DNA of 64,000 nucleotides from NCBI GenBank assembly GCA_028690055.1, contig JAQVBZ010000005.1, positions 379 through 64,378 of the forward strand, read 5' to 3'. This stretch comes from Minisyncoccota bacterium (GTDB lineage Bacteria; Patescibacteriota; Minisyncoccia; JAHIHE01; JAGLIN01). Below, piece after piece: positions 36,376 through 59,853 of this stretch; within the stretch, counting starts at the first letter, position 1; the number at the start of each line of letters is the position of its first letter. The translations under genes were made by a program, and so were the position numbers. A model generated the notes under the pieces. That model had not been told where the DNA came from, searched no databases, and was given only the letters and a program-made list of their open reading frames with translations.

Positions 36376-38028
36376 TTATTTCTTTTCAAGGGTTTTGGTG
36401 GTGCCTTCAAAATTTTCACACACCCATTTTATTTTTTCATTCACTCCAAGCTTTTCCTTGCCATACAATGTTTCGTCAATTACATCAAAAGGAGTTTTAT
36501 CTTTTGTTGCTTCAAAATTTGCAACTGTTGAAATATCATAGACATCAAGATTATCGCCGAGAGGCTTGTTTTTCTCATTCCACTTGAAGTCTTTGGTGCC
36601 GTCATAGCACTCACCGGTCATCACCCGTTTAAGTCGTTTGCTGGTTGCGTCATACGCAATACCTTTTGGTGTGGCACTTGTTTTTTCATTATTTGTTACA
36701 AGAATAAACTGGCGATTTTGATTATCTTTATTCATTTCTAAAACGGCTTGTCCAGTTGTTCCACTTCCGGCAAAAAAGTCCAGCACAACTAAATCGGCTT
36801 CAACATCTTCACTGCTTTCACACAGTTTAATTAATTGTTTGATTAATTCTTTAGGTTTAGGGTAGTCAAAAATGCCTTTTCCCATAATAGCAGACAAGTC
36901 TTTGTTGGCGTTGTCGTTTGAAAATTCGTTATCAACGAGCCTTAATGTTGATACAGGAGCAGTTCTAGCAGATTCAATGACTTGATATTTGCCGCCAATC
37001 TTTACGATTTTCGCATTTTGATAAGTCTTTGTATAAATTCGGTCGCCCTTGACTTCGATAAAGCCTTGTTCTTTACCAAACTCATACAAGTCCTTACTCC
37101 ATCTCCATCCCCAGTCCGCACGCCCGTGCAAACCACTCTGTCTCTTTTCGTAAGCCTTTTTATCGCCACCAGCGTAAAAAACTCGTCCGTCAATTGAAAT
37201 AGGATAGTCAAGTGTTTTAACCCAACCTAAACTATCATAATCTAATGTCTGATTTAGTTTGTATCTTCCACGGGTTGCCACATATTCATCTTCATTTGAG
37301 TAACCTTCATCATCGTGCAGTTGAGCAAAAAGCCCTTTCTTTGCCGTGCAAGTATAAGACAAAACATAATCGTGATTGAGCGCAATGGCAGTTGAAGATT
37401 TACCGCCTTTTTTGGTAACACGAGGGAACGAACAAGCAAAATTACCCTCTTCAAACACTTCATCAAAAAGACCCTTCACATACGCCTGATTTTTGTCGTC
37501 AATACTACAAAATATCACGCCGTTATCACTTAAAAGCTGGCGGGCGAGGACAAGGCGTGGGTAAAGCATAGAAAGCAAATTGTCCCGAGTGATAGCGTTT
37601 TCATAATTCGTCTTGGCAAACTCGCCCATACTATCTTTGCCGTATGGTGGATCAATATAAATCACATCAATCATGCCGCGGTATTGAATCAATAGGTTTT
37701 GAAGCGCATCATAATTGTCGCCGATGATGAGCTTGTGCGTCAGGGCGTTTTTGTCTTGTACAAAACTTAATTTTTCATTTTTCTTAAAATGCTTTATTGT
37801 GTCGGTCATTTTCTCCAGTCGTTTGTCAAAATGAAAGCCGGTGCGTTTATAGGTGGTGCCGAGTTCGGCAATCATTATAGCCTCGTTAATAGTTTCGGCA
37901 TTTGTGATGAGTTTTTTCAAAAGATCGGCATTCGTCTTTTCGATAATTTTGTCGACAATACGCTTGTCAATCTCGGCGATGAGATCGTCTTTAACTTTTT
38001 TTATTTCATTTGTCATAGTCTTTTCCAT
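36376..38028 (-). CDS. mod: Type III R-M Mod subunit (beta-class N6-adenine/N4-cytosine DNA methyltransferase)
   Basis: 550 aa. Motif IV DVIYIDPPYG precedes motif I LDFFAGSGTTGQA (beta permutation). Gene order mod-res with a 9-nt gap. Confidence 0.8.
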   Translation of the reverse strand: MEKTMTNEIKKVKDDLIAEIDKRIVDKIIEKTNADLLKKLITNAETINEAIMIAELGTTYKRTGFHFDKRLEKMTDTIKHFKKNEKLSFVQDKNALTHKLIIGDNYDALQNLLIQYRGMIDVIYIDPPYGKDSMGEFAKTNYENAITRDNLLSMLYPRLVLARQLLSDNGVIFCSIDDKNQAYVKGLFDEVFEEGNFACSFPRVTKKGGKSSTAIALNHDYVLSYTCTAKKGLFAQLHDDEGYSNEDEYVATRGRYKLNQTLDYDSLGWVKTLDYPISIDGRVFYAGGDKKAYEKRQSGLHGRADWGWRWSKDLYEFGKEQGFIEVKGDRIYTKTYQNAKIVKIGGKYQVIESARTAPVSTLRLVDNEFSNDNANKDLSAIMGKGIFDYPKPKELIKQLIKLCESSEDVEADLVVLDFFAGSGTTGQAVLEMNKDNQNRQFILVTNNEKTSATPKGIAYDATSKRLKRVMTGECYDGTKDFKWNEKNKPLGDNLDVYDISTVANFEATKDKTPFDVIDETLYGKEKLGVNEKIKWVCENFEGTTKTLEKK

Positions 38029-38032
38029 AGTA

Positions 38033-38248
38033 TTATTTCATTAATTCATCAAGCGAAACACCGAGAGCGTCCGCAATTTTTTTCGCTGTGTCGATTCTCG
38101 GATCAGAAGTCGAGCCGGATTCGATTTTTGAGATCGTATGAAAAGCCAAATCGCTTTTTTTAGACAAAGTATCTTGCGACAATCCGGCTTTGAGCCGTAG
38201 CTTCTTGATATTTTCACCGATTTTTGATTTTTCCATTATTATAGACAT
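38033..38248 (-). CDS. XRE-family HTH transcriptional regulator (C-protein-like controller of the R-M operon)
   Basis: 71 aa. LRLKAGLSQDTLSKKSDLAFHTISKIESG helix-turn-helix. 4 nt upstream of mod. Confidence 0.65.
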   Translation of the reverse strand: MSIIMEKSKIGENIKKLRLKAGLSQDTLSKKSDLAFHTISKIESGSTSDPRIDTAKKIADALGVSLDELMK

Positions 38249-44100: not shown

Positions 44101-44559
44101 TTTGGTCTTCCTCTTCTGGATTTTTTATGAAGTGTTTATTTATTCTTATGTTTCATGTCGCGAGTATAGAGCTTGCGATATTCAACTGTGCATTTTATCA
44201 TACTTTTACCATATGTCAAGATTATCTTAGACAAAAGATCAAATCCTATTGAGTCTGCATAAAGTAATAGCTTAAACAAGCAATCATTTTTTTTGGAGAG
44301 GGCGGGATTTACCCCTCCGGGGCATAAACTTCTCATCCCGTTATCCTATCACACCAAACAAAAAACCATATAAAAATATGGTCTTTTATTTGGCGGGCAT
44401 CCTCGGGCTGGAACCGTGATCTTTGCAATCCTAGTAAGGCTTTTTAGTAGTTTTTTGGGGTCTTAGAAAATAAGATCCTCGTGCGCTTGTCTTTTCTAAA
44501 AAGTGACAAATGTGACATGATTCTAGGAGTAAATGTTACATTAATATGTAACATTCCTT

Positions 44560-46179
44560 TTAAATTTTTCCTAAAATAGTTTCAAATTTATTTAAAATTT
44601 TAATAAACTCATCATTATAATTAGCTTGTAATATTTTACTATCAGCAAAATTGCTATAATCTATTACGTTTATTTTTTCATCCGCTTTATATTTTTTTGC
44701 TTGATATTCTTCATCTTTAAGAGTTGCGGTTAATAAAACTTGTTTATTTAAACTTTTGTAAATGTCCAGCATTTTTTCCTCTTTCGATGAAGCGATTTCA
44801 CCATCTCTAAAAGAATCAACAATAATTGGAAAGTCGTGATTCATTTCTTTGTTAAGAGAAACTATTTTAGTAAAATAAAACTCTTGGTTTTCACTACCCG
44901 AATATGTTTCCGTACCTTTTGTAAATATATCACTAAAAACTAAAACGCCGTTTTCATCAATTTCATTATAAATACTATTCATACTAGCAATGACATTTCG
45001 CATAAAACTTTTCTGTTGTTCAGCCTTTTCTACGTGCTCTTCATTTTTCTTTTTTAATTCCTCCAATATTCCTTCAAGTTTTTTATTGGCTTCCCAAATT
45101 TCTTGTTCTATTTGCTTGTCGTTAATGATCTCCTCTCCAAAAATCATGTAGTCTCTATAATCAGGAGGAGTTTCCACAATCTCTTTGTTAAGCTGCTCCT
45201 GCTCGGAATTGATCTTACAAGCTAGCTCTTCAATAATTTCTTCTTTAATCTTAATATCTTCTTTTATTGATTCTATAATCCTTTTCTTTACGTGCATATT
45301 GCTGATTTCAAAATTATATTCAGAGTTAGCACTAGCAAATATTATCTTATCGCTTCCGCAATTTGCGCATTTAATTTTTCCTGTATCTATAAATCTATTC
45401 AATGAATTAAGTTCAAATAACAAACTCTCCAATTTTATCTTTCGATTATTTTCTCTTGTCTGTTCAGTTCTGTATTTTGCAATATCGCTATTTATTGATT
45501 CCATAATCCCTTTCTTTTTTTCATATTCCTCCCTGTTTATATTCTTTGATGAATACTCTGCGATTTTAGGATTAGCTTTTATGGTTTGTAGCTTCTTTTT
45601 TAAAGATCTTATCTTGCTCTCTATTTCAATTTTCTCTTCTTTTAAGTTTCGTTCTTTAAATTTATCTAAAACAACATTATCTATATCCATCATGGAATAT
45701 AGCATATTTTTGAAATCATCTTTATCATACTGAGCTGCGGATATTAATTTTGATGTATTTCTTTTGTCTTGACCAAGGAAAAATAATTCATAAAGCAATG
45801 AAGGGGCAACGATCCCTTCGTTACCGTCTTTAGAAATCCTTGGAAGCTGATAAATTTCTTTATCAAAGAAATGCTTAAATTCACTAATGCTGTTGCATAT
45901 TTGATATGCATTCTCACTCTTTACAATAATAGAATTCTTCTTTCTTAAAAATTCGTACTCTTTCCCGCTTATTTCAATCTTTGTATAAAAATAATATTCT
46001 CTGTAATTAAAACTTTCAGGAAATATTGGATCTTTCCCAATTGCGTACATAGCGCCCTGCATTAATAATGTCTTGCCCTTATTATTATCATTACTAAATA
46101 TTATATTCACCCCATCCTTTAATCTATCCTCAATGAATGCTTCCCTTAAATTACCTATAGCGATCTTTTTAATTCGCAT
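44560..46179 (-). CDS. SMC/Rad50-like ATPase with central coiled-coil and CxxC zinc-hook (Lamassu LmuB-like candidate)
   Basis: 539 aa. N-terminal SMC_N-type head with Walker A FSNDNNKGKT. Long coiled-coil with KIKCANCGSDK at mid-length. C-terminal signature-like TYSGSENQ and Walker B PIIVDSF. Very AT-rich gene. Confidence 0.6.
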   Translation of the reverse strand: MRIKKIAIGNLREAFIEDRLKDGVNIIFSNDNNKGKTLLMQGAMYAIGKDPIFPESFNYREYYFYTKIEISGKEYEFLRKKNSIIVKSENAYQICNSISEFKHFFDKEIYQLPRISKDGNEGIVAPSLLYELFFLGQDKRNTSKLISAAQYDKDDFKNMLYSMMDIDNVVLDKFKERNLKEEKIEIESKIRSLKKKLQTIKANPKIAEYSSKNINREEYEKKKGIMESINSDIAKYRTEQTRENNRKIKLESLLFELNSLNRFIDTGKIKCANCGSDKIIFASANSEYNFEISNMHVKKRIIESIKEDIKIKEEIIEELACKINSEQEQLNKEIVETPPDYRDYMIFGEEIINDKQIEQEIWEANKKLEGILEELKKKNEEHVEKAEQQKSFMRNVIASMNSIYNEIDENGVLVFSDIFTKGTETYSGSENQEFYFTKIVSLNKEMNHDFPIIVDSFRDGEIASSKEEKMLDIYKSLNKQVLLTATLKDEEYQAKKYKADEKINVIDYSNFADSKILQANYNDEFIKILNKFETILGKI

Positions 46180-47194
46180 ATATGTTGTCTTTAATTATTG
46201 AAATTATAAATAATAAACTTTTTCGATCAAGATGTTTTGATTTGATGTTAATGCTACTTTCCAAGCCGCTGTATACCCTATAAATATCAGCTTTGGGATT
46301 AATATCAAATTGATTAATGGTGAATTCAAGAACTTTCCAAAATTCTGGATTTGAATTCTTATTAAAAAAAGCTCTTGCCAGATTTGCTTTGCAATCCTGT
46401 ATCAAGTCTTTTGTTGCTTCTGTATCCAAGTTATCCGTTTCATTTTTGAAAGATATGGGAATTGATTTGTATTCGAAAATATCACATCCAAGTACTCTAT
46501 TAATAATTAAGGTGTAAATTTCTTTTTTGAATAAATGTCTATTAAACTTTAAAACATCTTCAATTTTTTCAATTTGTTCATTCTCTATACAACTGTTTTT
46601 CTTAGCTGATTGAACATCTCTAATCTCTTCAAAAATATTTTGATAAAAATCATTATTTCTAATTTTTCTGTCTTTAAATTTGGTTATTCTTTTTATATAG
46701 TCGCTTATATCTTTACTATCTTGGACAAAAATAATTTTATTAAAAAAAGATTCGGCATCTTCTTCATTGTTTTTTCCGGTATTGTTTTTAAGCTTATCAA
46801 TGAGGCCATTTTTTATTCTTGATCTTGTATCTTCCTGGAAATTATCCATTCCGAATTCGTCCAGATTTTCTTTAATCAAATATTCTTTGTTCAGTTTAGA
46901 GACAAATAATATAAGGCAGCAAAAATTCAATCCTGATATATGGTTTTTGTACAAAGTAAACAAAAATTCTCCAATTTGTTTTGGATAAAATTTTGAATAA
47001 TTCTTAGATTGGATATCCCATAGCTCGCTATAGCTTTTATCTATGCCTGTAACATCGTTAAAACAATCAATTGTAAATAAATCGACCTGATCACGATCTT
47101 TTCTAAAGCCGACGAGATATAATAACGACTTCGTCTCGAATTCGGTTGCCTTTTTATTATTTCTCTCGGTATTGGTGAAAGTATATATACTCAT
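46169..47194 (-). CDS. Hypothetical protein co-operonic with the SMC-like ATPase (candidate effector)
   Basis: 341 aa. Overlaps the downstream ATPase gene by 11 nt. N-terminal D...D...(D/E)xK-like residues (FTIDCFNDV...WDIQSK) give a weak, unverified nuclease-like hint. Confidence 0.45.
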   Translation of the reverse strand: MSIYTFTNTERNNKKATEFETKSLLYLVGFRKDRDQVDLFTIDCFNDVTGIDKSYSELWDIQSKNYSKFYPKQIGEFLFTLYKNHISGLNFCCLILFVSKLNKEYLIKENLDEFGMDNFQEDTRSRIKNGLIDKLKNNTGKNNEEDAESFFNKIIFVQDSKDISDYIKRITKFKDRKIRNNDFYQNIFEEIRDVQSAKKNSCIENEQIEKIEDVLKFNRHLFKKEIYTLIINRVLGCDIFEYKSIPISFKNETDNLDTEATKDLIQDCKANLARAFFNKNSNPEFWKVLEFTINQFDINPKADIYRVYSGLESSINIKSKHLDRKSLLFIISIIKDNIYAN

Positions 47195-47482
47195 TAGATA
47201 AATCTATAAAAAATACGGTTTAAACTTAGCATATTTTAGCTAAAAATAACTGTTCTTGGCAATTAATAGGCGATAATATTATTTTATTTATATTCGAAAG
47301 TTGCTTTTATTGTTCTTTGGTTAAAATTAATAGATTAACCGTGTAGGGCAGTTCATTATTAACTTTGTTTATAACTTTACCAAGATCTAACTGTTTTGTA
47401 AACAAAAACAGAGCTAAAATAAGCTCTGTTTTTAATTCTCTCTGTGTTGACACGATGTTGCAGTGTTAAGTGAGGATATCTT

Positions 47483-48442
47483 TTATATCCTTCCCTCTGT
47501 AACCAATCGCCAATAGTGATAACCTAATGCAGTTAATTTACAAGATTTCGAATTTTGTGCTGCAAAATACATATACTCTTCACCGACGGGTCTTACTAGA
47601 TTTACACCTTGAAATTTTTGCAAATTTTTAAATATTGCAACATTTTCCGGCTTAGCAATATCAACATTGGTATCTTCAAAAGAAGGATCTAACAAATATT
47701 CAGCCTCAGGAGTAGGAAAATATTCTACAATTTTTCTTAATATATCAGGAGATACTGGAGGCGTGACAGTGCGTAAAGATGTGAAATTAGTAACATTTGT
47801 TTTGAAAACAGGTCTCTGGTCCCATGGACCGAGTGCCTGGTCAATGTAAGCATATATGCCGCCGGGCGTTATGCGTCCCATTAAATCAGCCGCTCCACCT
47901 TGTATGGCATCTAGCAATAAACCTGTAAATACTCCATGTCCGTCAATTTCGGCAGCTGTTTCAGTACTTAGACTTGCTGTTAAAACAACAATCCCTTCAC
48001 TTATTTGAGAAACATGTCCGCCAGATACTTCCGGCGAACCAAAAGACCCGGAATGGCAACAATCCAGAATGATAATTTTATTTTTTATCTTTGATTTATT
48101 GGCTAGGGTCAATATTTCTTCCATAGAAACGCCCTCATCATGTTTTTCATAATCTGGAGTTACTATATATCCACCAGTGATATCTAAATAGCCATGTCCA
48201 GAAAAATATAGCAAGGCTACATCGCCTTCTCCATCGAATAGTTCAACAATTTCGCCTTTTAATTCTGACTTTTTAGGAATATTATTTTTTAATCTCACAG
48301 AAAAGTTTGGAGAACCATCGCCATTCTTTTCGATAACACCAGATAATATTGAAGCGTCGTTTACGCAACCAGTGAGTGGTAAACCGGGGTAGTCATCTAT
48401 TCCAATTAATAATGCTTTTCTCATATTTTTATCTATCTCCAT
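47483..48442 (-). CDS. Caspase-like peptidase (C14 family) with C-terminal domain of unknown function
   Basis: 319 aa. Catalytic His in LYFSGHGY and catalytic Cys in IILDCCHSGSFG, with classic caspase/metacaspase spacing. Confidence 0.75.
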   Translation of the reverse strand: MEIDKNMRKALLIGIDDYPGLPLTGCVNDASILSGVIEKNGDGSPNFSVRLKNNIPKKSELKGEIVELFDGEGDVALLYFSGHGYLDITGGYIVTPDYEKHDEGVSMEEILTLANKSKIKNKIIILDCCHSGSFGSPEVSGGHVSQISEGIVVLTASLSTETAAEIDGHGVFTGLLLDAIQGGAADLMGRITPGGIYAYIDQALGPWDQRPVFKTNVTNFTSLRTVTPPVSPDILRKIVEYFPTPEAEYLLDPSFEDTNVDIAKPENVAIFKNLQKFQGVNLVRPVGEEYMYFAAQNSKSCKLTALGYHYWRLVTEGRI

Positions 48443-48812
48443 TTACTAGAGCTTTTATGTTATCCCATGTCCAACTATAATAACCTTCTAAACCATTTGG
48501 ACTGGGACAAATCTTGTCTTTATAACCTCGGACGCCCACAACAGGGACTCCTGCCTCTTTTGCCATTTCGATCTCCGCTTTAACTCCGCTGCACTGACTA
48601 GTTTTTGTGCCCACCATAACAATAACCAAGTCAGTTTTTTTGATTTTTGTTAAACATTTCTCTTTCCAAGTTCTTTCATCCCAAGGCTCTTTAACAGACC
48701 AATCTTCGATTTCGAAAGGAGAGTCTGGATTTTTTGATTGACCGACAAGCGAGTTTCTTAGAAATTCATCGTTATCAAAATCAAAACTAATAAAAACTTT
48801 CTTTTTAATCAT
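48429..48812 (-). CDS. TIR-like domain protein (DUF1863/TIR_2-type)
   Basis: 127 aa. KVFISFDFDND start. Later SQCSGVKAEIEMAKEAGVPVVGV motif typical of small bacterial TIR-like domains. Overlaps the caspase-like gene by 14 nt. Confidence 0.55.
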   Translation of the reverse strand: MIKKKVFISFDFDNDEFLRNSLVGQSKNPDSPFEIEDWSVKEPWDERTWKEKCLTKIKKTDLVIVMVGTKTSQCSGVKAEIEMAKEAGVPVVGVRGYKDKICPSPNGLEGYYSWTWDNIKALVNGDR

Positions 48813-48822
48813 ATATTTGTAG

Positions 48823-49035
48823 TTATTTAGATTTTCGGTTATAAGGTGACTGGTTCGTCGGTTTTAAGCTGACACCCAGATTGGATGCTTTTTTCTGCAC
48901 TCCGCTAACAGGCCTGCCTAACTTCAAGCTTATTACCCTGGTAGGCATGTTTTCTTTTGCCATTTCTTTCAATTGCTTAACTTCTGCTGGTGTCCATTGT
49001 TTACCGGCATTTTGAATGTACTTGGGGTTTGTCAT
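48823..49035 (-). CDS. GcrA-like small DNA-binding protein
   Basis: 70 aa. WTPAEVKQLKEMAKENMPTRVISLKLGRPVSGVQKKASNLGV resembles the GcrA N-terminal DNA-binding domain. Confidence 0.4.
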   Translation of the reverse strand: MTNPKYIQNAGKQWTPAEVKQLKEMAKENMPTRVISLKLGRPVSGVQKKASNLGVSLKPTNQSPYNRKSK

Positions 49036-49043
49036 ATATTTAA

Positions 49044-49700
49044 TTAGTTCTTAATAACATCTACCACTTTACCATTTATAATGAACTCGTCATCCTCACT
49101 AATATAAATTGGCATATATTCATGATCTGACCGGGCTCGCAAAACAATCCTATTATTTTTTATATCACGGTTATATTCTTTTATGGTAGCCAATCCGTCA
49201 ATAACTGCCAGTACTATATCGCCATTGTTGTAACTCTTTATTTCACGGTCTACCAGTACATAATCACCGCTTTCAATTTTATTGCCATTAACTTCGGCTT
49301 GGTTCATGGAATCTCCGTCAGTTTTAATGGCAAATAACCTGTTTTTATTTCTTGGTAAAAGGCTGGATGATACTTTAAGATATCTTTCAACCTTTTGTTC
49401 GGCATATATAGCCGCTGGTCCACAATTTGCAGCTCCTACTATCGGAATGGAGAATAAAGGACTTTTGCTGACATGGTTATAACCTTTCTTAACGACTTTC
49501 AGTATTCCTTGCTCTAGATTCATCTGTATCAGCCCAGCTTTTTCTAATTGCTGAAGATGGTGTTTAGCAATCTGGGGTTTACCTTGGGCTCCTATAAGCT
49601 CGGCGATTTTTCTTAAGCTCAACGACCCTATGTCTGGGGTGTTGGCGATAAGATTTAATAATTGTTGTTGTGTTATATTCATATGCAATAAATATAGCAC
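49044..49700 (-). CDS. LexA/CI-like repressor (wHTH + S24 peptidase domain)
   Basis: 218 aa. N-terminal winged helix. C-terminal S24 domain with GDSMNQ catalytic Ser motif and conserved Lys. Divergent to the phage-like genes. Confidence 0.75.
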   Translation of the reverse strand: MLYLLHMNITQQQLLNLIANTPDIGSLSLRKIAELIGAQGKPQIAKHHLQQLEKAGLIQMNLEQGILKVVKKGYNHVSKSPLFSIPIVGAANCGPAAIYAEQKVERYLKVSSSLLPRNKNRLFAIKTDGDSMNQAEVNGNKIESGDYVLVDREIKSYNNGDIVLAVIDGLATIKEYNRDIKNNRIVLRARSDHEYMPIYISEDDEFIINGKVVDVIKN

Positions 49701-50374: not shown

Positions 50375-51649
50375 ATGGAAAAGTTAAAATGGCACACTGT
50401 GCAAAAAAGGATTAATGATCTGATTCCTCAGGAAGCTAATCCTCGAAAAATTACCGATAAGCAAATGTCGGATTTGAAGAAAAGTTTGTCTAAATTCAAT
50501 CTGGTAGAAATCCCGGCTGTCGATTTAGACGGCAGGATACTAGCAGGGCATCAAAGAATCAAGGCGCTTCAGCTCCTAGGGCGAGGCGAAGAATTGATTG
50601 ATATCAGGATTCCTAATCGTCAGTTAACCGAGGATGAGGCCAAAAGATATCTCCTTGCCAGTAATGCCTTGGGTGGTGACTGGGATTTCGACAAATTAAA
50701 AACCTTTGACTTGGATTTGCTCATTGACATTGGTTTTGATCAGATTGATTTGTCTCATTTCTGGGATAATGAACTCGAAATAAAAGAGGAGGATTTTGAT
50801 GTCGAAGAAGAACTGAAAAAAATAAAAACGCCAATAACGAAACCCGGTGATCTGATACATCTAGGCTGTCATCGTCTGTTATGCGGCGATTCTACTAATC
50901 CGGATAATCTAAAAAAGTTGTTTGGAGGAGAAAAGGCCTCGATGATATTCAGTGATCCGGTTTATAATATAAAACTCGATTATTCAAAGGGCATTGGCGG
51001 CAAAAATGAATATGGCGGTGCGGTTAATGATAATCGAAGCTATGATGAATACAAACAGTTTATCAAAAATTCCCTATTAGCCGCTTTGCCTAATACAAAT
51101 TCGGATTGTCATGTCTTTTATTGGTGTGACCAGACCTATATCGGCCTGATACAAGAATTGTATCGTGAATTAGGCATAATCAATAAACGAGTTTGTTTAT
51201 GGATTAAAAACTCACAAAACCCTACTCCAATGATTGCGTTCAACAAATGCTATGAGCCCGCAGTCTATGGTGTAAAAGGCAAACCATTCATAAACCCAGA
51301 CATAAGGAACTACAATGAGATATTAAACAAGGAACTAGGCACCGGGAACGAGTTATTTGAGGATATACATGATTCCTTGGATATCTGGCTCACCAAAAGG
51401 ATATCAGGTAAAGATTATGAGCATGCAACTAGCAAGCCATCAAAGTTATACGAAAAAGCTATTCGAAGATGCACTAAGCCGGGCGATATCATTCTTGATT
51501 CATTCTCTGGATCGGCCAGCACTATTATGGCTGGAGAACAACTAAAGAGAAAAGTATATGCCATGGAGCTGGAGCCAATCTTCTGTGATTTGGCGATAAG
51601 AAGATATAGAAAATTAACTGGCAGAAAGGAGGTAGTAAAGCATGTCTAA
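50375..51649 (+). CDS. ParB-like nuclease domain fused to DNA methyltransferase (phage-type orphan N6A/N4C MTase)
   Basis: 424 aa. N-terminal ParB/Srx pattern (EIPAVDLDGRILAGHQRIKAL), motif IV-like FSDPVYN, motif I-like DSFSGSASTIMAGE. Confidence 0.8.
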   Translation: MEKLKWHTVQKRINDLIPQEANPRKITDKQMSDLKKSLSKFNLVEIPAVDLDGRILAGHQRIKALQLLGRGEELIDIRIPNRQLTEDEAKRYLLASNALGGDWDFDKLKTFDLDLLIDIGFDQIDLSHFWDNELEIKEEDFDVEEELKKIKTPITKPGDLIHLGCHRLLCGDSTNPDNLKKLFGGEKASMIFSDPVYNIKLDYSKGIGGKNEYGGAVNDNRSYDEYKQFIKNSLLAALPNTNSDCHVFYWCDQTYIGLIQELYRELGIINKRVCLWIKNSQNPTPMIAFNKCYEPAVYGVKGKPFINPDIRNYNEILNKELGTGNELFEDIHDSLDIWLTKRISGKDYEHATSKPSKLYEKAIRRCTKPGDIILDSFSGSASTIMAGEQLKRKVYAMELEPIFCDLAIRRYRKLTGRKEVVKHV

Positions 51650-52064
51650 GAAAAACAGATTACAGCAAGCATTCTTTGAAGAACTAAAGAAAGTTCCTAT
51701 CGTGCTAGTGGCTTGTGAAAAATCCGGCATCTCCCGCAATAGCGTTTATCGTTGGAAACGGGAAGATAAGGAATTTTCCAGGGCGATGGATGAAGCTTTG
51801 GCTGAGGGCGAAGCTCTGGTAAACGATATGAGCGAAAGCCAGCTTCTGACTTTGATCAAAGAAAAGAATTGGTCAGCTATCAGTTTCTGGCTTCGTCATC
51901 GCAATCCAAAATTTAAGGATAAGATAGAGGTGACTTCGAGGAATGAAAACGTTGACGAATTAACGCCATCACAGGCGGAAACTGTACGCCAGGCTTTGAA
52001 ATTGGCCAATATCCTGCCTCAAGATGAACAAGTAACTGATAAGCCTAATAATCCAACTCTATGA
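51642..52064 (+). CDS. Phage terminase small subunit
   Basis: 140 aa. HTH pattern GISRNSVYRWKREDKEF. Overlaps neighbours by ATGTCTAA/ATGA (translational coupling). Directly upstream of the large subunit. Confidence 0.6.
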   Translation: MSKKNRLQQAFFEELKKVPIVLVACEKSGISRNSVYRWKREDKEFSRAMDEALAEGEALVNDMSESQLLTLIKEKNWSAISFWLRHRNPKFKDKIEVTSRNENVDELTPSQAETVRQALKLANILPQDEQVTDKPNNPTL

Positions 52065-53527
52065 AACCGAACAACATGATACCTCAGGCCTTGGTGGAAC
52101 AAATGACTAAGGACAGGAAGATAAGAACAGCAATAACTAAGGAAAGCTTCTCTTATTTCTTTCACTTTTATTATGCTCATTATGTTAAATATGCGACCGC
52201 CGATTTTCAAAAAGAAATCATAAGCTTGGTTGAAAAGAGCGACAAGGAAAATCTCTTTGTCGTGGCCTTCAGAGGTTCGGGTAAGTCTACCGTTATTACT
52301 GCCGCCTATCCGATCTGGGCAATCCTTGGCAAACAAGAAAAGAAATTTGTCGTCATTTTCTGCCAAACTCAAGCTCAGGCCAAGCAGCACATGATGAACT
52401 TGCGACGTGAATTAGAAGATAATGACTTATTAAAAAAAGACCTTGGCCCCTTCAGGGAAAATAGCGATGAGTGGGGCGCGCAATCAATCGTGTTTTCCAA
52501 TACGGATGCTCGTATTACCGTTGCTTCAGTGGATCAAAGTATTCGTGGCATAAGGCACTATCAACATCGACCGGATTTGATTATCTGTGACGATGTCGAG
52601 GATATAAGTTCCACTAAAACTAGGGAGGGAAGAAATAAAACCTATCAATGGCTAAAGAGCGAAGTGATACCAGCTGGTGATAGAGATACCAGATTGATAA
52701 TAGTCGGTAATTTATTACACGAGGATTCCCTGCTTATGAGGTTAAAGGAAGAAAGAGAAAAAGAGGTTATTGATGGCAACTTTCTGTTTTATCCGTTAAT
52801 TGACAAGAAGGGTGATTGTCTATGGCCGGGCAAATACCCAACCGATGAAGATATTGAAAATGAGCGCAGAAAGGTCGGTAATGAGATTACCTGGCAACAA
52901 GAATACCTACTTAATATCGTTCCGTCCGAAGATCAAGCTATATTTCAAGAATGGATAAACTATTACGATGAGATACCGGCACCTCTAAAACTATATGGCG
53001 GTTATAGTTCGTATATGGAAATAAGAATTGGAATTGACCCAGCTATTTCTAAAAGTGATGTCGCTGATTATACTGCTATGGTTCCTGGTATGTTATATGA
53101 AACTACGTCTAACTATAAGCTTTATATTCTCCCTAAAATAATAAATAAGCGTTTAAGCTTCCCTGAAACAGTTGATGCTTGTAAAACATTATATCAGAGC
53201 TACAAAAGAGATTCTGTTTATCCAAAATTCATCATAGAAGATGTGGCTTATCAAAAAGCCTTGCCTCAACAACTGCAAGTCGAGGGTATTTATAATGTAA
53301 TGACAACCAGGCCAGGAAATCAGGATAAAAGAAGTAGACTTATCGTACTAGCTAACCTAATTAAAACTGGACAAATATTGTTCCCAAAGGAAGGAGCGGA
53401 GGAACTAATACAACAGATAGTCCATTTTGGGGTTGAAAAACATGATGACTTAGCTGATGCCTTTGCCAATTTAGCTCACAGCATGATTGAAAAACCGCCG
53501 AGATCGTGCAGAGTCTATTGGGTATAG
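52061..53527 (+). CDS. Phage terminase large subunit
   Basis: 488 aa. Walker A AFRGSGKST, Walker B LIICDDVED, C-terminal RNaseH-like nuclease acidic residues. Confidence 0.8.
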   Translation: MKPNNMIPQALVEQMTKDRKIRTAITKESFSYFFHFYYAHYVKYATADFQKEIISLVEKSDKENLFVVAFRGSGKSTVITAAYPIWAILGKQEKKFVVIFCQTQAQAKQHMMNLRRELEDNDLLKKDLGPFRENSDEWGAQSIVFSNTDARITVASVDQSIRGIRHYQHRPDLIICDDVEDISSTKTREGRNKTYQWLKSEVIPAGDRDTRLIIVGNLLHEDSLLMRLKEEREKEVIDGNFLFYPLIDKKGDCLWPGKYPTDEDIENERRKVGNEITWQQEYLLNIVPSEDQAIFQEWINYYDEIPAPLKLYGGYSSYMEIRIGIDPAISKSDVADYTAMVPGMLYETTSNYKLYILPKIINKRLSFPETVDACKTLYQSYKRDSVYPKFIIEDVAYQKALPQQLQVEGIYNVMTTRPGNQDKRSRLIVLANLIKTGQILFPKEGAEELIQQIVHFGVEKHDDLADAFANLAHSMIEKPPRSCRVYWV

Positions 53528-53672
53528 CTAGAAAAGTTATCGGTAAGGCTATATATTCGAATATAAAGTAAAAACTTTGCAGACTGCATAAAATTGTCGA
53601 CTTTTCATTTACTTTTAGCGGAAAAAGAGGTAAAGTAATGGTAATTTGATAATAAAAAAACTATAAAATCAT

Positions 53673-53864
53673 ATGATAAAACCAGTAAACGTTACGTCCT
53701 TAAACGCATCTGATGAGTTATCTTGTGAATGTAATAAATGCGGTTGGGTAGGCAAGCTCAAATTGAATGGATATATTGTTAATACAGACAATGACGGTAA
53801 TCCATTAGGAAATATCGACGAGAACTGTCCTGAGTGCGGGGCTAGTTTAAATGAAAATATATAG
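53673..53864 (+). CDS. Small zinc-ribbon protein
   Basis: 63 aa. CECNKCGW...CPECG. Confidence 0.35.
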   Translation: MIKPVNVTSLNASDELSCECNKCGWVGKLKLNGYIVNTDNDGNPLGNIDENCPECGASLNENI

Positions 53865-53916
53865 GAGGTGTGCCAAATAAAAATGTCTATAATAAATAAC
53901 ATAAACTACTAAAAAC

Positions 53917-54390
53917 ATGGATAACCTAATATTTGCCAGAAATTTAGTTAAAGGTAAAATCGCAGAAACCATATTTGCCCAGATGCTCAGAGAAACAAAA
54001 GATTTCACAGTCTTAGAATTTGGCTATGAGAAAATCATTCCTGAATTAGTACAACAGGGATATGATGAAAATAATTTGATGCTTGAAACTTTGAGAACAG
54101 CACCAGATTTTGCAGTTATTAATCAAAAAACGAGAGAGGTTAGACTTATCGAGGTAAAATATCAGCGTACTATAAATTATGACTATGTTTTAAAATATGC
54201 AGAAAAGATGAGCCAGTCATGGAATCCGTCTTATCTTTTTGTTGCTACTCTGGATGGCTTTTATTTTGATGAAATTAATAATGTTATTAATGATAAAGGC
54301 AGGATTTCTCCTTTAAAACATCCCCAGATAAGCAATGATTTACAAGATAAATATCTAAAGATATTAACGGATTTCGAGAAAAACAATTAA
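53917..54390 (+). CDS. PD-(D/E)xK nuclease-fold protein (YraN/UPF0102-like)
   Basis: 157 aa. E (KIAETIFAQ) ... APDFAVIN ... VRLIEVKYQ gives a canonical E-PD-ExK arrangement. Confidence 0.5.
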   Translation: MDNLIFARNLVKGKIAETIFAQMLRETKDFTVLEFGYEKIIPELVQQGYDENNLMLETLRTAPDFAVINQKTREVRLIEVKYQRTINYDYVLKYAEKMSQSWNPSYLFVATLDGFYFDEINNVINDKGRISPLKHPQISNDLQDKYLKILTDFEKNN

Positions 54391-54406
54391 GAAATATTTA
54401 AAAAAT

Positions 54407-55696
54407 ATGCCTGAAAAGAAAAATAGACGAGAGGAATATTTAGAAAGTACAAACGAGGACAAAGAAATATATTTTTTTATTGATGAATTTCAAAAAATAA
54501 ATATTAAATCTCGGGAAGTGTATATCAAAACCAATAAAGTTATTCATCATCCATTTAATAAATCTGGAAACTTTAAATATAAAAAAATAACAGAAATTAT
54601 ATATGAAGGATTGCCAGATCCACTGCCTAGAGGTTTTATCAAAGATTGGAGGCTTGGGTATGGTTTTACGAAAGTATTGAATCCAATACTTTATTTGATT
54701 GAAACAAAATTTGATGTGTCGAAAGTTGTCGTGAAGCCAAAAGGAAAATTCATGATAAAAAATAGAACGGTATACCTTAGTTATGAAGATTTGAATAAGT
54801 TCTATCCGAAAATGGACACTCTTATGAAAGTTCAGAGTAGTCAAAAAGAAGCGTTAGTCTCAAAATATCTTAGTCAGTATCTACCTACAGAATTTAAAGA
54901 TAGTAAACAAAAATATATAAAAGGATCAATTTATTCGATTGTCACAGACCAAATTGGTAAGGATGGATCAATTTCAAAGGATGATTATGATGCTATGCTT
55001 GAGCTAGTTGTATCGAAGTCAAGCGAGCAAACGATTGAATCGAAAAAAATAGTTTTAGCCACAAAGGAAAAAATCGAAAAAATATTCTTAGAAGATGGGG
55101 TTAAAGATTTTAAAAAAATATTAATTTTAAAATCTGTTTCTGGAGGATTTGAGAAAAAATGGGAACAGTTTTTCAAGGAGAATACATGGATTATCTCCAA
55201 TCTGTTCTCTCTCCCTGCATTGCTGTTTGCTAATCAGGCTTATGTGGGCGGAAAGGAAATCTTCAATACTAATGGAAAAGTGACGGATTTTTTATTTAGG
55301 AACAAATTGACCGATAATTTGGCAATTATTGAACTCAAAACTCATAAAACTGAGCTATTGTCCAAGAAGCCTTACAGAGGAGATGATGTATACTCATTAT
55401 CCGAAGAACTATCTGGCGCCGTTAATCAAGTATTAGACCAAAGGCAAAATTTACTAAATGATTTTTATGCCTTAAGATGCAAAACTGGCAATACGAATCA
55501 ATTTGAATCATATAATTCTAGATGTCTTATAATCGCTGGTAAAATCGAAGATCTTCCTAAAAATGGTAAAAGAAGTTTTGAAATTTTCCGAAATAATCTA
55601 CATGGCGTTGAAATTGTTACATTTGATGAGGTGCTGGAGAAAATGGAAACTTTTGTTTCTTTAATTAAGACGGATGCTAAAAAAAGAAAGAGATAG
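54407..55696 (+). CDS. Large PD-(D/E)xK nuclease-domain protein (Shedu/DUF4263-like candidate)
   Basis: 429 aa. C-terminal half carries D...DNLAIIELK (hydrophobic strand + ExK) and ends ...GVEIVTFDEVLEKME. The family assignment is tentative. Confidence 0.35.
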   Translation: MPEKKNRREEYLESTNEDKEIYFFIDEFQKINIKSREVYIKTNKVIHHPFNKSGNFKYKKITEIIYEGLPDPLPRGFIKDWRLGYGFTKVLNPILYLIETKFDVSKVVVKPKGKFMIKNRTVYLSYEDLNKFYPKMDTLMKVQSSQKEALVSKYLSQYLPTEFKDSKQKYIKGSIYSIVTDQIGKDGSISKDDYDAMLELVVSKSSEQTIESKKIVLATKEKIEKIFLEDGVKDFKKILILKSVSGGFEKKWEQFFKENTWIISNLFSLPALLFANQAYVGGKEIFNTNGKVTDFLFRNKLTDNLAIIELKTHKTELLSKKPYRGDDVYSLSEELSGAVNQVLDQRQNLLNDFYALRCKTGNTNQFESYNSRCLIIAGKIEDLPKNGKRSFEIFRNNLHGVEIVTFDEVLEKMETFVSLIKTDAKKRKR

Positions 55697-55764
55697 TTAG
55701 GTATTCGTAAAAAGATTTTTACGACTTTATTTATATAGGTGATAACAAATTTAATATAAACGCG

Positions 55765-56193
55765 ATGTTTTCTATAGGCAATATCTGTTCAATAATTTCC
55801 GTTCCATTTGCTTCATCCGCATCTTCTTTCTTATGGCAGATTATTCTCTTGCTATGGCCGTGGTACTGGCTGGGCATATTTCTCTTTCTTATTACATGGA
55901 TAATCTGGGAAATAATAACTCGTAACGGTACGGCACATTATAATTCTAAAAATGGCTTTTCTCCTTCTTTTAATCGTTTTGTCGGTAGTGGTACTTATGC
56001 AGGTTTGCAGGCATTAGTCTATTTATTTTTTGAAAAGTTTTTTGGCGATTCTGTATATTGCATGGTATGGCCATACGAAATTCATCTCGTTGTATTTCTT
56101 TCATCGGGATTGTTGCTACATCTGTCTGGATTTTGGCCTTATCTTTGGGAACCAAGCGGACAACGATACCACAAAAAGAGACATTATCGTTAG
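55765..56193 (+). CDS. Hypothetical membrane protein
   Basis: 142 aa, about 4 hydrophobic segments. Confidence 0.4.
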   Translation: MFSIGNICSIISVPFASSASSFLWQIILLLWPWYWLGIFLFLITWIIWEIITRNGTAHYNSKNGFSPSFNRFVGSGTYAGLQALVYLFFEKFFGDSVYCMVWPYEIHLVVFLSSGLLLHLSGFWPYLWEPSGQRYHKKRHYR

Positions 56194-56318
56194 ATTATAA
56201 TACTCCAAACAGTTATAATAACCACTTACAAGTGGTTATTATTGTTAACATAGCTAGTCATCCTAGCCAATATCAGCTAAAATAATAGGTTCGTATAATA
56301 ACATATTAATATAATTCT

Positions 56319-57422
56319 ATGAACGATAAACCATATAATCACTTAAAGGATCGCATATATTACAGTGAACTTTACGATAAGCTTACTATCGAAAAATGTC
56401 AGTGGTGGGAGAAGCGCCAATATTCTAAAGACATTTCTAAACTAAAAGGCAAAGAAAAGGAAATCGAAGAAGCTAAAGAAAGATGGTTTCATAATGCGGT
56501 TATACCTATAGCCCTGTATTTTATTAAAGCAGATCGCGCTTCTAAGAAGTCTGAAACAATCCAAGGGTGGATGAAACGAGATAAAGAGAAAGACGAGAAA
56601 GTTATTAATGCCAAAAAACCGCAAGGCGTTCGGTGCTTAGGCTGTAGCTCACCCTTGGAAAACTGCATATCACGTGATCTTATGAATAATCATAAGGGAA
56701 AAGAAGAAGTGCTTTTTATGTTTGAATGCTCTAAATGCGGAAAACGCCGAGTTTATTGGGAAGATGGAACAGAATGGGAGCATAAGCCAACTTGTATAAA
56801 ATGTAATTTTGAAGTGCAGGCAGAGAGTAAAAGAGAGAAAGATATTATTATCCATATATGTTCTTGTTCACACTGCGGTCATGTGGAGACTGACGTATGG
56901 GATTTAAATGAAAGAAAGGAGGAAAAGATAGATCCAGACTTTGAAGCCAATCGAAAGAAATATTGCATTTCCGAACAAGAAGGATATGAAATTATAAGCC
57001 GAGCAGAACAGATGGGAAAATTAGTTGAAAAATTTAAAGATAAAGAAGAAAATAAAGATATTTATGATGCGGTTAGTAAAATTAAAAAGCTAAATATCGC
57101 AGAGTTACAAGATCTTCTTAATTCTGTGATGGAAAATAATGGCTATATTAAACTTGAATTTGAAAAGCCTGAATTTCAGAAAGATGTTATCTTGGGTTTT
57201 AGCCTTCAAGACAACAAGCCCGGTCGGGAAAAATATGACAGCGTTCACAATCTTCAAAAGCTTATAAAAGAGACTCTTACACCTACAAACTGGAGATTGA
57301 TGAGCGATGGAATCATATATCGTTTAGGGTTCCTGCAAGGCAGACTTAAAGGTATTGAAGGCGAAGAAAATCTCTTGAAACTAGTCGAAAACGACCTTAA
57401 GAAAAAGGCTAAAAGTAGGTAG
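56319..57422 (+). CDS. Multi-zinc-ribbon protein, hypothetical
   Basis: 367 aa with four CxxC pairs (CLGC, CSKCGK, CIKC, CSCSHCGH) and a Lys/Glu-rich C-terminus. Confidence 0.45.
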   Translation: MNDKPYNHLKDRIYYSELYDKLTIEKCQWWEKRQYSKDISKLKGKEKEIEEAKERWFHNAVIPIALYFIKADRASKKSETIQGWMKRDKEKDEKVINAKKPQGVRCLGCSSPLENCISRDLMNNHKGKEEVLFMFECSKCGKRRVYWEDGTEWEHKPTCIKCNFEVQAESKREKDIIIHICSCSHCGHVETDVWDLNERKEEKIDPDFEANRKKYCISEQEGYEIISRAEQMGKLVEKFKDKEENKDIYDAVSKIKKLNIAELQDLLNSVMENNGYIKLEFEKPEFQKDVILGFSLQDNKPGREKYDSVHNLQKLIKETLTPTNWRLMSDGIIYRLGFLQGRLKGIEGEENLLKLVENDLKKKAKSR

Positions 57423-57511
57423 ATAAACTGTTGGTAACTAGCTCTTAGCAAAAAATAATATTTATGATATTATTGCTGGACATCTAGATGTTTTTAGTTT
57501 AAAATGGTAAT

Positions 57512-57716
57512 TGACAATTGATGGCTGAAAGGCCAGGCTACCTAAACTCAGACTTCATGTCTGGGCATGGTGCTTCAAGACCCAACCAAGACACTGACCT
57601 CCACGTTCAGCGACTCTTGGTTGGGCTATGTCTGGAAACGGACATAGGGCCGCAAGGCCTAGCTGGCGTGGAGACTTTTGGATCTCTACGACCAGCTACT
57701 GCATAGCTGGTTTTTA
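57512..57716 (+). ncRNA. Candidate structured small RNA (GC-rich, >=6 hairpins incl. GAAA and GCAA tetraloops) ending in an intrinsic terminator
   Basis: Hairpins CAGAC-UUCAU-GUCUG, CCCAACCAAGA/UCUUGGUUGGG (11 bp), CUAUGUC-UGGAAACG-GACAUAG, GGCC-GCAA-GGCC, GUGGAGA/UCUCUAC. Long-range GCCAGGCUA/UAGC-UGGC pairing. Terminator CCAGCUA-CUGCA-UAGCUGG+U5. GC about 55% versus about 33% in the flanks. Confidence 0.4.
57692..57716 (+). terminator. Rho-independent terminator (CCAGCTA-ctgca-TAGCTGG-TTTTT)
   Basis: Perfect 7-bp stem plus T-run. This is the 3' end of the structured RNA candidate. Confidence 0.55.
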
Positions 57717-57740
57717 TTAATTAAATAAAACATTAAAACC

Positions 57741-58385
57741 ATGAACGAGGAAACAACGAAGTGTCCTAAGTGCAAAGAAGAAGTTTTAAAAGGTGCGAAA
57801 AAGTGCAAGCATTGTGGTGCGGATCTTAGAAATTGGTTTATGCGTCACAAAATCATCTCTGTATTTTTAGTTCTTATGTTTATCGGCATCATAAGTGGAG
57901 GAAGTAATCCAAATAACTCAAACAATGGGCAAAATTCCAATGGCATTCAAAACGATACTAAAGCGGAACAAAAGACTGGCAAAATAAATGAAACTATTTC
58001 TGTCGGAAATTTTAGCTACAGAGTGCAGAAAGCGGAACAGGCTCAGTCGGTTGGTAACCAATATATTAACCATGATGCCTCTGGAGTTTATGAAATCGTA
58101 TCTTTAACACTCAGAAATAATGACAAAGAATCACGTTATGCAGACAGCAATATGTTTAAACTGATGGATAATCAAGGCAGATCATTTGTCGTTTCTACGG
58201 AAGCTACTAGTGCTTATTCTATAGCCAACGATAATCAGTACGATCTGTTCTTAAAACAAGCCAATCCCGGTCTTGAAATAAACGGAGTGCTTATCTTTGA
58301 TATTCCCCAAGATGCCAGTGGTCTTAAACTTGAAGTAAGCGGCGGATTTGGTAGTCCGGAAAAAGCCTACATAGAACTTAACTAA
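57741..58385 (+). CDS. Zinc-ribbon / TM / extracellular-domain protein (DUF4352-like architecture)
   Basis: 214 aa. CPKC...CKHCG ribbon, one TM (IISVFLVLMFIGIISGG), Asn/Gln-rich linker, C-terminal beta-rich domain. Confidence 0.5.
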   Translation: MNEETTKCPKCKEEVLKGAKKCKHCGADLRNWFMRHKIISVFLVLMFIGIISGGSNPNNSNNGQNSNGIQNDTKAEQKTGKINETISVGNFSYRVQKAEQAQSVGNQYINHDASGVYEIVSLTLRNNDKESRYADSNMFKLMDNQGRSFVVSTEATSAYSIANDNQYDLFLKQANPGLEINGVLIFDIPQDASGLKLEVSGGFGSPEKAYIELN

Positions 58386-58569
58386 ATCTATATTTAGACG
58401 TTTAAAGAATACCCTCTGTATCTTCTTAGATCAGAGGGTATTTTTATTTGTTATGCCAACCAAACTCAATTCTTCGATAAGATAACCTGTATCTGTTCGC
58501 TCTTAGCAAAAGCTTAAAAGTGTGTCATTAATGGAGGCGTAGATTTAACTAAATAATCAACTAAATCAT

Positions 58570-59853
58570 ATGCTTCCATTAGAAACTAAGCTGAAATACT
58601 GCTTATATGCTAGAAAAAGCACTGAATCAGATGAGCGACAAGCCTTATCAATTGATTCTCAAGTTAAAGAAATGCTTCAAATAGCCGAACGAGAAAACTT
58701 AGAAATCGTTGATATCAGGAGAGAATCAAAATCAGCCAAAGACTCAGGTAACCGTCCTATCTTCAAAGAGTTAATCAAAGATATAACGGAAGAAAAGTTC
58801 AACGCTATCATTACCTGGGCTCCCGATAGACTTTCTAGAAACGCTGGCGATTTAGGATCGCTAGTTGATTTAATGGATGAGAAAAAATTAATGAGCATTC
58901 GTACTTTTGGCCAAACTTTTAGTAATTCTCCAAATGAAAAGTTTCTGCTCATGATTTTATGTTCTCAGGCCAAACTAGAAAATGATAATCGAGGGATAAA
59001 CGTAAAAAGAGGTTTAAGGGCAAGATGCGAGATGGGCTTATGGCCGACCTGTCCGCCAACGGGATACTTTAAAGAAAAGCGAGTTGATCATAAAGGACAA
59101 TGCTTAGTTGATCCTGATAGAGGTCCGGTAATAAAGCAAATGTTTGAGAAGGTTGCTTATGAGAAATGGTCCGGCCGAAAGCTTTATAACTGGCTTAGAT
59201 TCGATTTAAACTTTAGGACAGCTTTAGGTAAAAAACACTTAAGTCTCGGTAATATTTATCGACTTCTAGAAAATACCTTCTATTATGGCCCTTTTGAATA
59301 TCCTCGTGGTAGTGGTAACTGGTATCAGGGAAAACATGAACCGATAATCACCAAAGAAGTATTCGATTTAGTCCAAGAACAGATGAAGAATTCCCAACTA
59401 GTCAGACGAGAGAATATTGAGTTTGCCTTTACTAAAGTAATGAAGTGCGGTTTATGCGGTTCGGGAATTTCAGCCACGGAAAAATTTAAGAAGTTAAAAG
59501 ATGGCGGCTATAATCGCCATGTCTACTACGGATGTACCAAAGCAAAAGACAATAATTGTAAATCAGGCTATATTAGCGAAGAAGACCTGATTAAACAATT
59601 ACAAAAACAAATCGATAAATTGGATTTTAAAAAAGTTTCTATTCAAGATAAAATTCAGGGAGAAATCAAAAGATTCAAAAAGTTTCAAATCATGGCAACT
59701 GGCAAAAATGACAATATCGACGTAAGCGACGTCGATATTAAAAATTACATCAAATTCTTGTTAAAAGAAGGAGACGATCAAGAGAAACGAGAACTACTCA
59801 CATGCTTAAATGGGGAGATATTGTTGAAGAATAAGGTGATTGTGATTAAATAA
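58570..59853 (+). CDS. Large serine recombinase (phage-type integrase)
   Basis: 427 aa. Resolvase catalytic domain with YARKSTESDERQ (nucleophile Ser), recombinase domain, zinc-ribbon CGLCGSG...YYGCTK. Confidence 0.85.
   Translation: MLPLETKLKYCLYARKSTESDERQALSIDSQVKEMLQIAERENLEIVDIRRESKSAKDSGNRPIFKELIKDITEEKFNAIITWAPDRLSRNAGDLGSLVDLMDEKKLMSIRTFGQTFSNSPNEKFLLMILCSQAKLENDNRGINVKRGLRARCEMGLWPTCPPTGYFKEKRVDHKGQCLVDPDRGPVIKQMFEKVAYEKWSGRKLYNWLRFDLNFRTALGKKHLSLGNIYRLLENTFYYGPFEYPRGSGNWYQGKHEPIITKEVFDLVQEQMKNSQLVRRENIEFAFTKVMKCGLCGSGISATEKFKKLKDGGYNRHVYYGCTKAKDNNCKSGYISEEDLIKQLQKQIDKLDFKKVSIQDKIQGEIKRFKKFQIMATGKNDNIDVSDVDIKNYIKFLLKEGDDQEKRELLTCLNGEILLKNKVIVIK

Follow-up and report, generated by a model that had tools for sequence, protein, structure and literature searches.

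What do two overlapping, AT-rich genes contribute to a bacterium of the Candidate Phyla Radiation (CPR)? The question is raised by a locus in a 64,000-nucleotide stretch of contig JAQVBZ010000005.1 (the window), which derives from a Candidatus Pacebacteria (Patescibacteria/CPR) metagenome-assembled genome (MAG) and in which a 341-aa protein (A, LmuA-like) is encoded directly upstream of a 539-aa protein (B, LmuB-like). An initial annotation of the sequence had taken the pair for a Lamassu-like anti-phage module whose upstream partner might be a new type of effector. We find that the two adjacent genes match the PDC-M22A and PDC-M22B hidden Markov models (HMMs) of PADLOC end to end, and that they probably constitute a divergent type I Lamassu, the two-gene form without LmuC, acting by a mechanism like that of BcLmuAB from Bacillus cellulasensis. 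This placement rests on the architecture of the operon together with the best sequence match of B and the best structural matches of both A and B. The family is already catalogued as PDC-M22; the locus is a further member of a known system and brings no new effector or principle. The pair would form a self-contained, horizontally mobile operon with a role in defence.

The two genes and their products

Both open reading frames (ORFs) lie on the minus strand (Table 1) and, as originally described, overlap by 11 nt (ATGCGAATTAA) where A stops and B starts. Full-length homologues at 45–55% identity populate more than 300 database clusters for A and more than 700 for B, and genes called independently on a Logan contig yield the same 341- and 539-aa products; the clusters and the gene call rule out chance ORFs, and on these sequence grounds A and B are real genes. 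In the NCBI record of the source contig the lmuA-like gene is called as 236 aa only (P0002, 69% of the length). Homologues of A align from residue 1 and the 341-aa product includes the whole nuclease active site; since homologues from many phyla and the Logan gene call support 341 aa, we regard the shorter call as truncated. An antisense ORF of 182 aa (45185–45733) was dismissed as an AT-rich artefact opposite B. The AT-rich composition is borne out by a GC content of 0.29 in the cassette compared with 0.43 in positions 1–43000 of the window.

Translation of B recovers all the motifs that had been read from it initially, namely a Walker A, a mid-chain CxxC within KIKCANCGSDK, a signature and a Walker B (Table 1), in addition to a Q-loop, LGQDK, at residues 135–139. 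The cysteines C271/C274 fall at 50% of the 539-aa chain. In an alignment of 32 family members G35/K36/T37, Q137, C271, C274, S427–S429, Q432 and D455/S456 are invariant. The AlphaFold2 (AF2) model (predicted local distance difference test, pLDDT, 81) has an ABC head split in two and a coiled coil of antiparallel helices (173–259 and 294–407) that breaks near residues 203–215 and 337–353. The CxxC loop occupies the apex of this coiled coil, lying along the chain between the two head halves; confidence is low at the apex, which is expected since the monomer was modelled without zinc. B thus shows the build of a Lamassu LmuB, that of an ABC ATPase of the SMC/Rad50 kind whose head halves are separated by an inserted coiled coil. 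In short LmuB proteins the Walker B reads hhhhD[Q/S/T/E] and the number of CxxC motifs ranges from zero to two; LmuC has been lost from clade S (PMC12663957); B combines a deviant Walker B, PIIVD-S, with an intact Walker A GKT and signature SGS, and carries one invariant CxxC, a predicted zinc hook at the apex of the model. An invariant E461 lies five residues past the Walker B Asp.

Pfam and NCBIfam scans of B gave no significant match (TrlF_fam_ATP reached 5.5e-4, far below its cut-off), and as a single sequence B retrieved nothing from the PDB. PADLOC, which the initial annotation had proposed as a check, assigned B to PDC-M22B (7e-201, model positions 1–532 of 535) and also matched it full length to its LmuB model PDLC00254 (6.7e-23, residues 18–532, model positions 22–558 of 563). 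When a profile of the 32 members was searched against 177,635 PDB sequences, the sole significant match was type I BcLmuB (9ux7/9ux8; E 2.5e-8), with Walker A, Q-loop, CxxC and Walker B (IIIDSF vs FCMDSF) in register; the type II LmuB sequences in the PDB were not matched at E ≤ 10. Type I LmuB is the best structural match of B as well, and LmuB comes out ahead of SbcC and Rad50 whether the search is by sequence or by structure.

The partner protein A is modelled with high confidence (pLDDT 91.9; predicted template modelling score 0.89) as an N-terminal α/β domain followed by an all-helical C-terminal domain. The elements of the former follow the α-β-β-β-α-β order of PD-(D/E)xK nucleases, and the residues invariant in a 39-sequence alignment, E20, D43, D47, D60, Q62 and K64, map to its first helix and strands 2–3. 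K64 would probably correspond to the catalytic Lys that was mutated in the LmuA proteins BcLmuA, VcLmuA (K57) and SalEnt LmuA (K68). Approximately 180–200 residues of A can be aligned with the nuclease domains of Cap4, HamA, Avs3 and LmuA, and Foldseek aligns A to full-length LmuA chains over 382–392 columns with a probability of 1.0, type I LmuA being the best match. UniProt names two members of the family ‘Cap4-like DNA endonuclease domain-containing’. The predicted fold of A is that of a Cap4/DUF4297-type PD-(D/E)xK nuclease, the commonest Lamassu effector, and the suggestion of a new effector type is not upheld. By analogy, the C-terminal domain is presumed to serve LmuB docking and oligomerisation. 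Among PADLOC models only PDC-M22A matched A (9.1e-131, model positions 2–336 of 340), and Pfam and NCBIfam scans returned nothing significant, in keeping with the absence of a recognised domain noted at the outset. Three proteins of 340–478 aa (P0365, P0370 and P0374) match the A profile over the first 110–150 residues only, from which it follows that the nuclease domain of the family also occurs with other C-terminal regions.

Distribution and inheritance of the pair

A pattern scan covering 185,579 GTDB species with one genome each identified 55 loci, which is a lower bound, in Gammaproteobacteria, Bacteroidota, Bacillota, Gastranaerophilales, Cloacimonadota, Patescibacteria and others. Culturable species with a homologue include Pectobacterium brasiliense, Shewanella algae, Aeromonas salmonicida and Paenibacillus larvae (plasmid NZ_CP019656.1, 77846–80481), and WP_058020437.1 and WP_242936766.1 are RefSeq members. 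In 52 of the 55 loci B follows A directly on the same strand; of the three exceptions, two are loci cut off at contig ends and one is an A fragment. The start and stop codons overlap by 11 nt in 25 of 48 loci and by 4 nt in 18, a conserved arrangement that points to translational coupling and, in these 43 loci, leaves no space for a middle gene. Pairwise identities of A and B are closely correlated (r 0.92; none of 999 Mantel permutations reached r), indicating that the two co-evolve and are inherited together. An all-against-all comparison of the ORFs within 4 kb of 52 loci revealed no conserved third gene that could represent LmuC, and the largest neighbour family, tyrosine integrases, accounts for six loci. 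The nearest neighbours vary from integrases, type I restriction subunits, defence-type reverse transcriptases, AbiEi and dGTPase to housekeeping-type genes (MetH, PheT and Lgt). Many copies are chromosomal; two are on plasmids, one of these two next to an IS200 transposase and an integrase. A phage collection held no DNA or protein match to the family and hence gives no sign of it being phage-borne. Judged from these sequence contexts, the pair is a mobile accessory cassette. In four loci (L022, L027, L031 and L046) the tblastn alignments with A or B are interrupted by in-frame stops; these may be pseudogenised copies or assembly errors.

This distribution bears directly on a housekeeping role in DNA repair, in which the pair would form a complex of the SbcCD, Mre11–Rad50 or RecN type. 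The initial annotation had itself named a phosphoesterase partner, or universally core and syntenic homologues, as outcomes fatal to its proposal, and neither turned up: no calcineurin-like phosphoesterase is present, A being a predicted PD-(D/E)xK nuclease, and homologues turn up sporadically in different phyla, with no synteny to core genes. Members are rare and unevenly spread, with at least 55 loci in 185,579 species from unrelated phyla and no conserved neighbours. B is short in the arms at 539 aa, where SbcC reaches ~1000 aa; SbcCD and Mre11–Rad50 furthermore possess a canonical Walker B, carry their phosphoesterase at the heads and are core housekeeping genes, none of which applies here. 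Together with the low GC content relative to the host backbone and the ranking of LmuB above SbcC and Rad50, this effectively refutes a repair complex. Linkage, patchiness, variable neighbours and the lack of a third gene exclude both an SbcCD-like housekeeping role and a three-gene architecture with LmuC.

Placement among known systems and a proposed mechanism

The closest parallel to the pair is the type I Lamassu BcLmuAB (PDB 9ux7/9ux8; bioRxiv 10.1101/2025.06.23.660979), which shares the effector-then-SMC gene order anticipated by the initial annotation, the gene overlap, the zinc hook and the lack of LmuC. BcLmuB (562 aa) and B (539 aa) both have a single mid-chain CxxC hook and a coiled coil with a kink, and the Walker B of each ends in D-S, while BcLmuA (304 aa) and A (341 aa) both consist of an N-terminal Cap4-like PD-(D/E)xK nuclease and a C-terminal helical domain. 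One defining element of Lamassu, an LmuA with an N-terminal effector domain encoded upstream of lmuB in one operon, is found here by fold match, the domain being a Cap4-like nuclease in this case, and the two-gene layout without LmuC is that of type I. In contrast, the type II systems (DdmABC or ABC-3C) of V. cholerae and Salmonella enterica require an LmuC gene between lmuA and lmuB (PMC12663957; bioRxiv 10.1101/2025.03.14.643221), and VcLmuB has no zinc hook. Of the originally proposed resemblance to Lamassu/DdmABC, the Lamassu part therefore stands whereas the comparison to the three-gene DdmABC does not. Cap4/DUF4297-fold nucleases also occur in CBASS Cap4 (with a SAVED sensor), Hachiman HamA (HamB helicase), HerA-DUF4297 (HerA ATPase) and Avs3 (STAND NTPase); unlike A, none of these pairs with an SMC-like ATPase.

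A number of observations weigh against this placement. There is no sequence-level link between A and LmuA, Cap4 or DUF4297: the PADLOC LmuA models do not match A at E ≤ 1, a Pfam scan of 39 family members matched no family, DUF4297 and Cap4 included, and the family profile found no match among PDB sequences. An exhaustive HMMER profile search of 1.84 billion cluster representatives yielded only 328 matches, and the family is accordingly small and isolated. The global TM-scores from Foldseek are low (0.36–0.41). Identity to BcLmuAB is only ~18% for B and ~11% for A, and the C-terminal domain of A is likened to that of BcLmuA by analogy. The B family (32 sequences) has D-S in place of the Walker B glutamate and, within aa 478–495, no conserved histidine at the expected H-loop position, which reads LLTATLK here. 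Its cycle of ATP binding and hydrolysis may not be the one known from the systems studied so far. PDC-M22 is one of 145 untested ‘guilt by embedding’ candidates in PADLOC (Payne et al. 2024, bioRxiv 10.1101/2024.01.29.577857); it is a label without an assigned mechanism, the main text of that source does not contain the link to type I Lamassu drawn here, and our literature search found neither a paper naming PDC-M22 nor experimental data on it. Finally, the host is an uncultured CPR bacterium. A search for Patescibacteria together with Lamassu returned nothing relevant, and accessions of family members were not found in the searched part of the supplement to the PNAS/bioRxiv Lamassu paper.

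These points lend themselves to a different explanation, namely that PDC-M22 is a separate SMC-nuclease system that merely resembles Lamassu, a Cap4-like nuclease having joined an LmuB-like ATPase independently via an unrelated C-terminal adaptor. Sequestration, trigger and activation would then differ from BcLmuAB, for example with no tetramer switch or with a nuclease that acts while bound. The isolation of the A family speaks for this, as do the other C-termini found with its N-terminal domain and the decision of the PADLOC curators to keep PDC-M22 apart from Lamassu. Yet B is closest specifically to type I LmuB by sequence profile and by structure; operon order, overlap, single hook, ‘DS’ Walker B and absent LmuC all agree with type I Lamassu, and the Foldseek alignment of A extends over full-length LmuA. 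Moreover, Lamassu is modular in LmuA by definition, and a system with a swapped adaptor would still usually be filed as Lamassu. We therefore consider an independent origin of the pairing quite unlikely. A bolder version would make PDC-M22 an independent third lineage of Lamassu-like immunity, with a nuclease C-terminal domain unrelated to those of LmuA and a different release interface or oligomeric switch, and would make the window the first described SMC-based abortive defence in ultra-small CPR/Patescibacteria, located on a satellite-like island with caspase-TIR and Shedu; we hold this to be unlikely. A divergent type I Lamassu remains the reading we prefer. With the family added, LmuA and LmuB span a wider range of sequences than was known, present LmuA models missing the PDC-M22 branch, and in terms of annotation we suggest merging PDC-M22 with Lamassu type I.

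In the Lamassu systems studied so far, two LmuB subunits joined at the hook and by folded coiled coils hold a single LmuA via its C-terminal domain and keep it monomeric and inactive. DNA ends are bound by the heads, modulated by ATP binding and by slow hydrolysis associated with the deviant Walker B; the freed LmuA tetramerises via its C-terminal domain, two nuclease domains making up one active site, and degrades DNA, resulting in abortive infection or plasmid loss. BcLmuAB has a CQYC hook, a deviant Walker B and a stoichiometry of two LmuB to one LmuA, whose C-terminal domain docks on the distal part of the coiled coil; the complex is switched on by DNA ends, and LmuA assembles into a tetramer (bioRxiv 10.1101/2025.06.23.660979).

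Taking BcLmuAB and the type II systems as models, and carrying over from them complex formation, stoichiometry, trigger, oligomerisation and anti-phage activity, we propose the following sequence of events. A and B would be translated in a coupled fashion, and two copies of B would dimerise via the zinc hook (C271/C274) and the folded coiled coils. The dimer would hold one A as an inactive monomer via the C-terminal helical domain of A near the hook. The heads of B, with ATP bound, would engage exposed DNA ends or replication intermediates of the phage or plasmid, and the deviant Walker B leads us to expect slow ATP hydrolysis. A would then be released and oligomerise through its C-terminal domain, allowing paired PD-(D/E)xK domains (E20, D43/D47 and D60/Q62/K64) to form an active site, to cut DNA indiscriminately and to abort the infection. 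With both of its proteins linked to the structurally solved type I Lamassu, PDC-M22 gains a concrete and testable mechanism.

The cassette and the surrounding island

The cassette looks like a transcription unit of its own, given the hairpins that flank it and a promoter-like site (Table 1). The strong hairpin downstream of the lmuB-like gene is the probable operon terminator; a consensus terminator scan missed it because its stem is AT-rich. On the other side, a hairpin probably ends the caspase/TIR operon and thereby parts that operon from the cassette.

Table 1 Features of the window discussed in the text (positions are those of the window)
Feature	Position	Strand	Details
lmuA-like gene (PDC-M22A)	46169..47194	-	341 aa, ATG start; predicted Cap4/DUF4297-type PD-(D/E)xK nuclease effector with C-terminal helical domain
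N-terminal nuclease domain of A	46670..47194	-	aa 1 to ~175 (boundary approximate); alpha-beta-beta-beta-alpha-beta core
DIQSK (D60-K64) of A	47003..47017	-	putative (D/E/Q)xK catalytic strand; by translation; invariant in 39 sequences
C-terminal all-helical domain of A	46172..46657	-	aa ~180-341, eight helices (181-339); AF2 secondary structure
lmuB-like gene (PDC-M22B)	44560..46179	-	539 aa, ATG start; short Rad50/SMC-like ABC ATPase, folded coiled coil, one zinc hook
Walker A / P-loop SNDNNKGKT of B	46069..46095	-	aa 29-37; by translation; aligned to GNTKGKS of BcLmuB
CxxC zinc-hook motif C271-A-N-C274 of B	45358..45369	-	coiled-coil apex; by translation; aligned to CQYC hook of BcLmuB
ABC signature SGSENQ of B	44884..44901	-	aa 427-432; by translation
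Deviant Walker B FPIIVDS of B	44812..44832	-	aa 450-456; Ser instead of catalytic Glu; by translation
Candidate sigma-70-like promoter TTGCCA-18-TAAAAT	47233..47262	-	39 nt upstream of lmuA-like start; 10/12 matches, consensus match only
Hairpin and U-run past the lmuB-like gene	44350..44392	-	~170 nt past the stop codon; RNAfold -25.5 kcal/mol
Hairpin and U-run directly after the upstream caspase gene	47404..47433	-	terminator-like site; folds at -16.8 kcal/mol
Cassette-sized block common to L001	44393..47320		L001 123-3054; blastn, 2932 bp, 94% identity
550-aa ORF and small HTH-regulator-like ORF	36376-38248	-	550-aa ORF resembles a DNA methyltransferase by inspection of the sequence, no domain search
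Caspase and TIR pair	47483-49700	-	Peptidase_C14 7.6e-19; 127-aa ThsB-like TIR 3.6e-10; 14-nt overlap
ParB-N6/N4 DNA methyltransferase, terminases, Shedu, DUF4352 protein, serine recombinase	50375-59853		
Shedu SduA homologue	54407-55696		SduA_C 7e-25
Large serine recombinase	58570-59853		
HARE-HTH and PD-(D/E)xK_5 protein	59882-60619	-	just past the recombinase

The limits of this unit recur in a second genome. The 2.9-kb block is the only stretch that a second Patescibacteria MAG (L001) has in common with the window; it includes the promoter candidate, reaching from the promoter region at one end to a point just short of the terminator hairpin at the other. The sequence comparison suggests that the cassette alone was recently exchanged as a unit between two Patescibacteria genomes. 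No terminal repeats were found at the edges of the 2.9-kb cassette, where only AT-rich noise is seen. By exchange of cassette-sized pieces, Lamassu-type cassettes would get into Patescibacteria and also into a few archaeal MAGs, and the present locus would illustrate immunity of the Lamassu type in a CPR bacterium.

In the window, the cassette marks the left end of a stretch of lower GC (~43–60 kb) that also holds a LexA-like repressor. Further along, this region contains small and large terminase genes without capsid, tail or other structural genes, and it looks like a phage satellite or a degraded prophage island laden with defence genes. Such a setting raises the possibility that the copy in the window is a decayed, non-functional remnant, to which could be added the four related loci with in-frame stops and the missing Walker B Glu and H-loop His of B. 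Both ORFs are, however, intact and full length with every family-invariant residue present; the deviant Walker B is family-wide and typical of functional Lamassu too, and an intact copy of 94% identity exists in another genome. We regard decay as extremely improbable.

The mobile setting could likewise be taken to mean that the cassette serves mainly in the competition or maintenance of mobile elements, removing plasmids or rivals or acting as an addiction module of the island, with phage defence secondary at most. The serine recombinase and terminase genes of the island, the copies on plasmids and beside integrases and the block swapped between two Patescibacteria genomes all fit this idea, and known Lamassu systems (DdmABC and SalEnt) also act on plasmids. 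Anti-plasmid and anti-phage activity are nevertheless two outputs of one Lamassu mechanism, and the idea does not really stand apart as an explanation; neither an antitoxin-like third component nor a conserved regulator turned up, and many copies are chromosomal and sit beside housekeeping genes. A primary role in element competition is in our estimation very unlikely.

The neighbouring defence-like pair pointed out by the initial annotation consists of a C14 caspase and a ThsB-like TIR protein. The caspase also scores 8e-29 with the NCBIfam model ‘caspase, EACC1-associated type’, which is below the cut-off of that model. This pair may be a separate defence module. A 70-aa HTH-like (helix–turn–helix) ORF and then a LexA/S24-type repressor are encoded upstream of it, and on Logan contig L057 the caspase, the TIR protein and the 70-aa ORF adjoin the cassette as well. 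The DNA methyltransferase-like ORF with its small regulator, and the HARE-HTH protein past the recombinase, resemble further restriction- or defence-like genes around the island.

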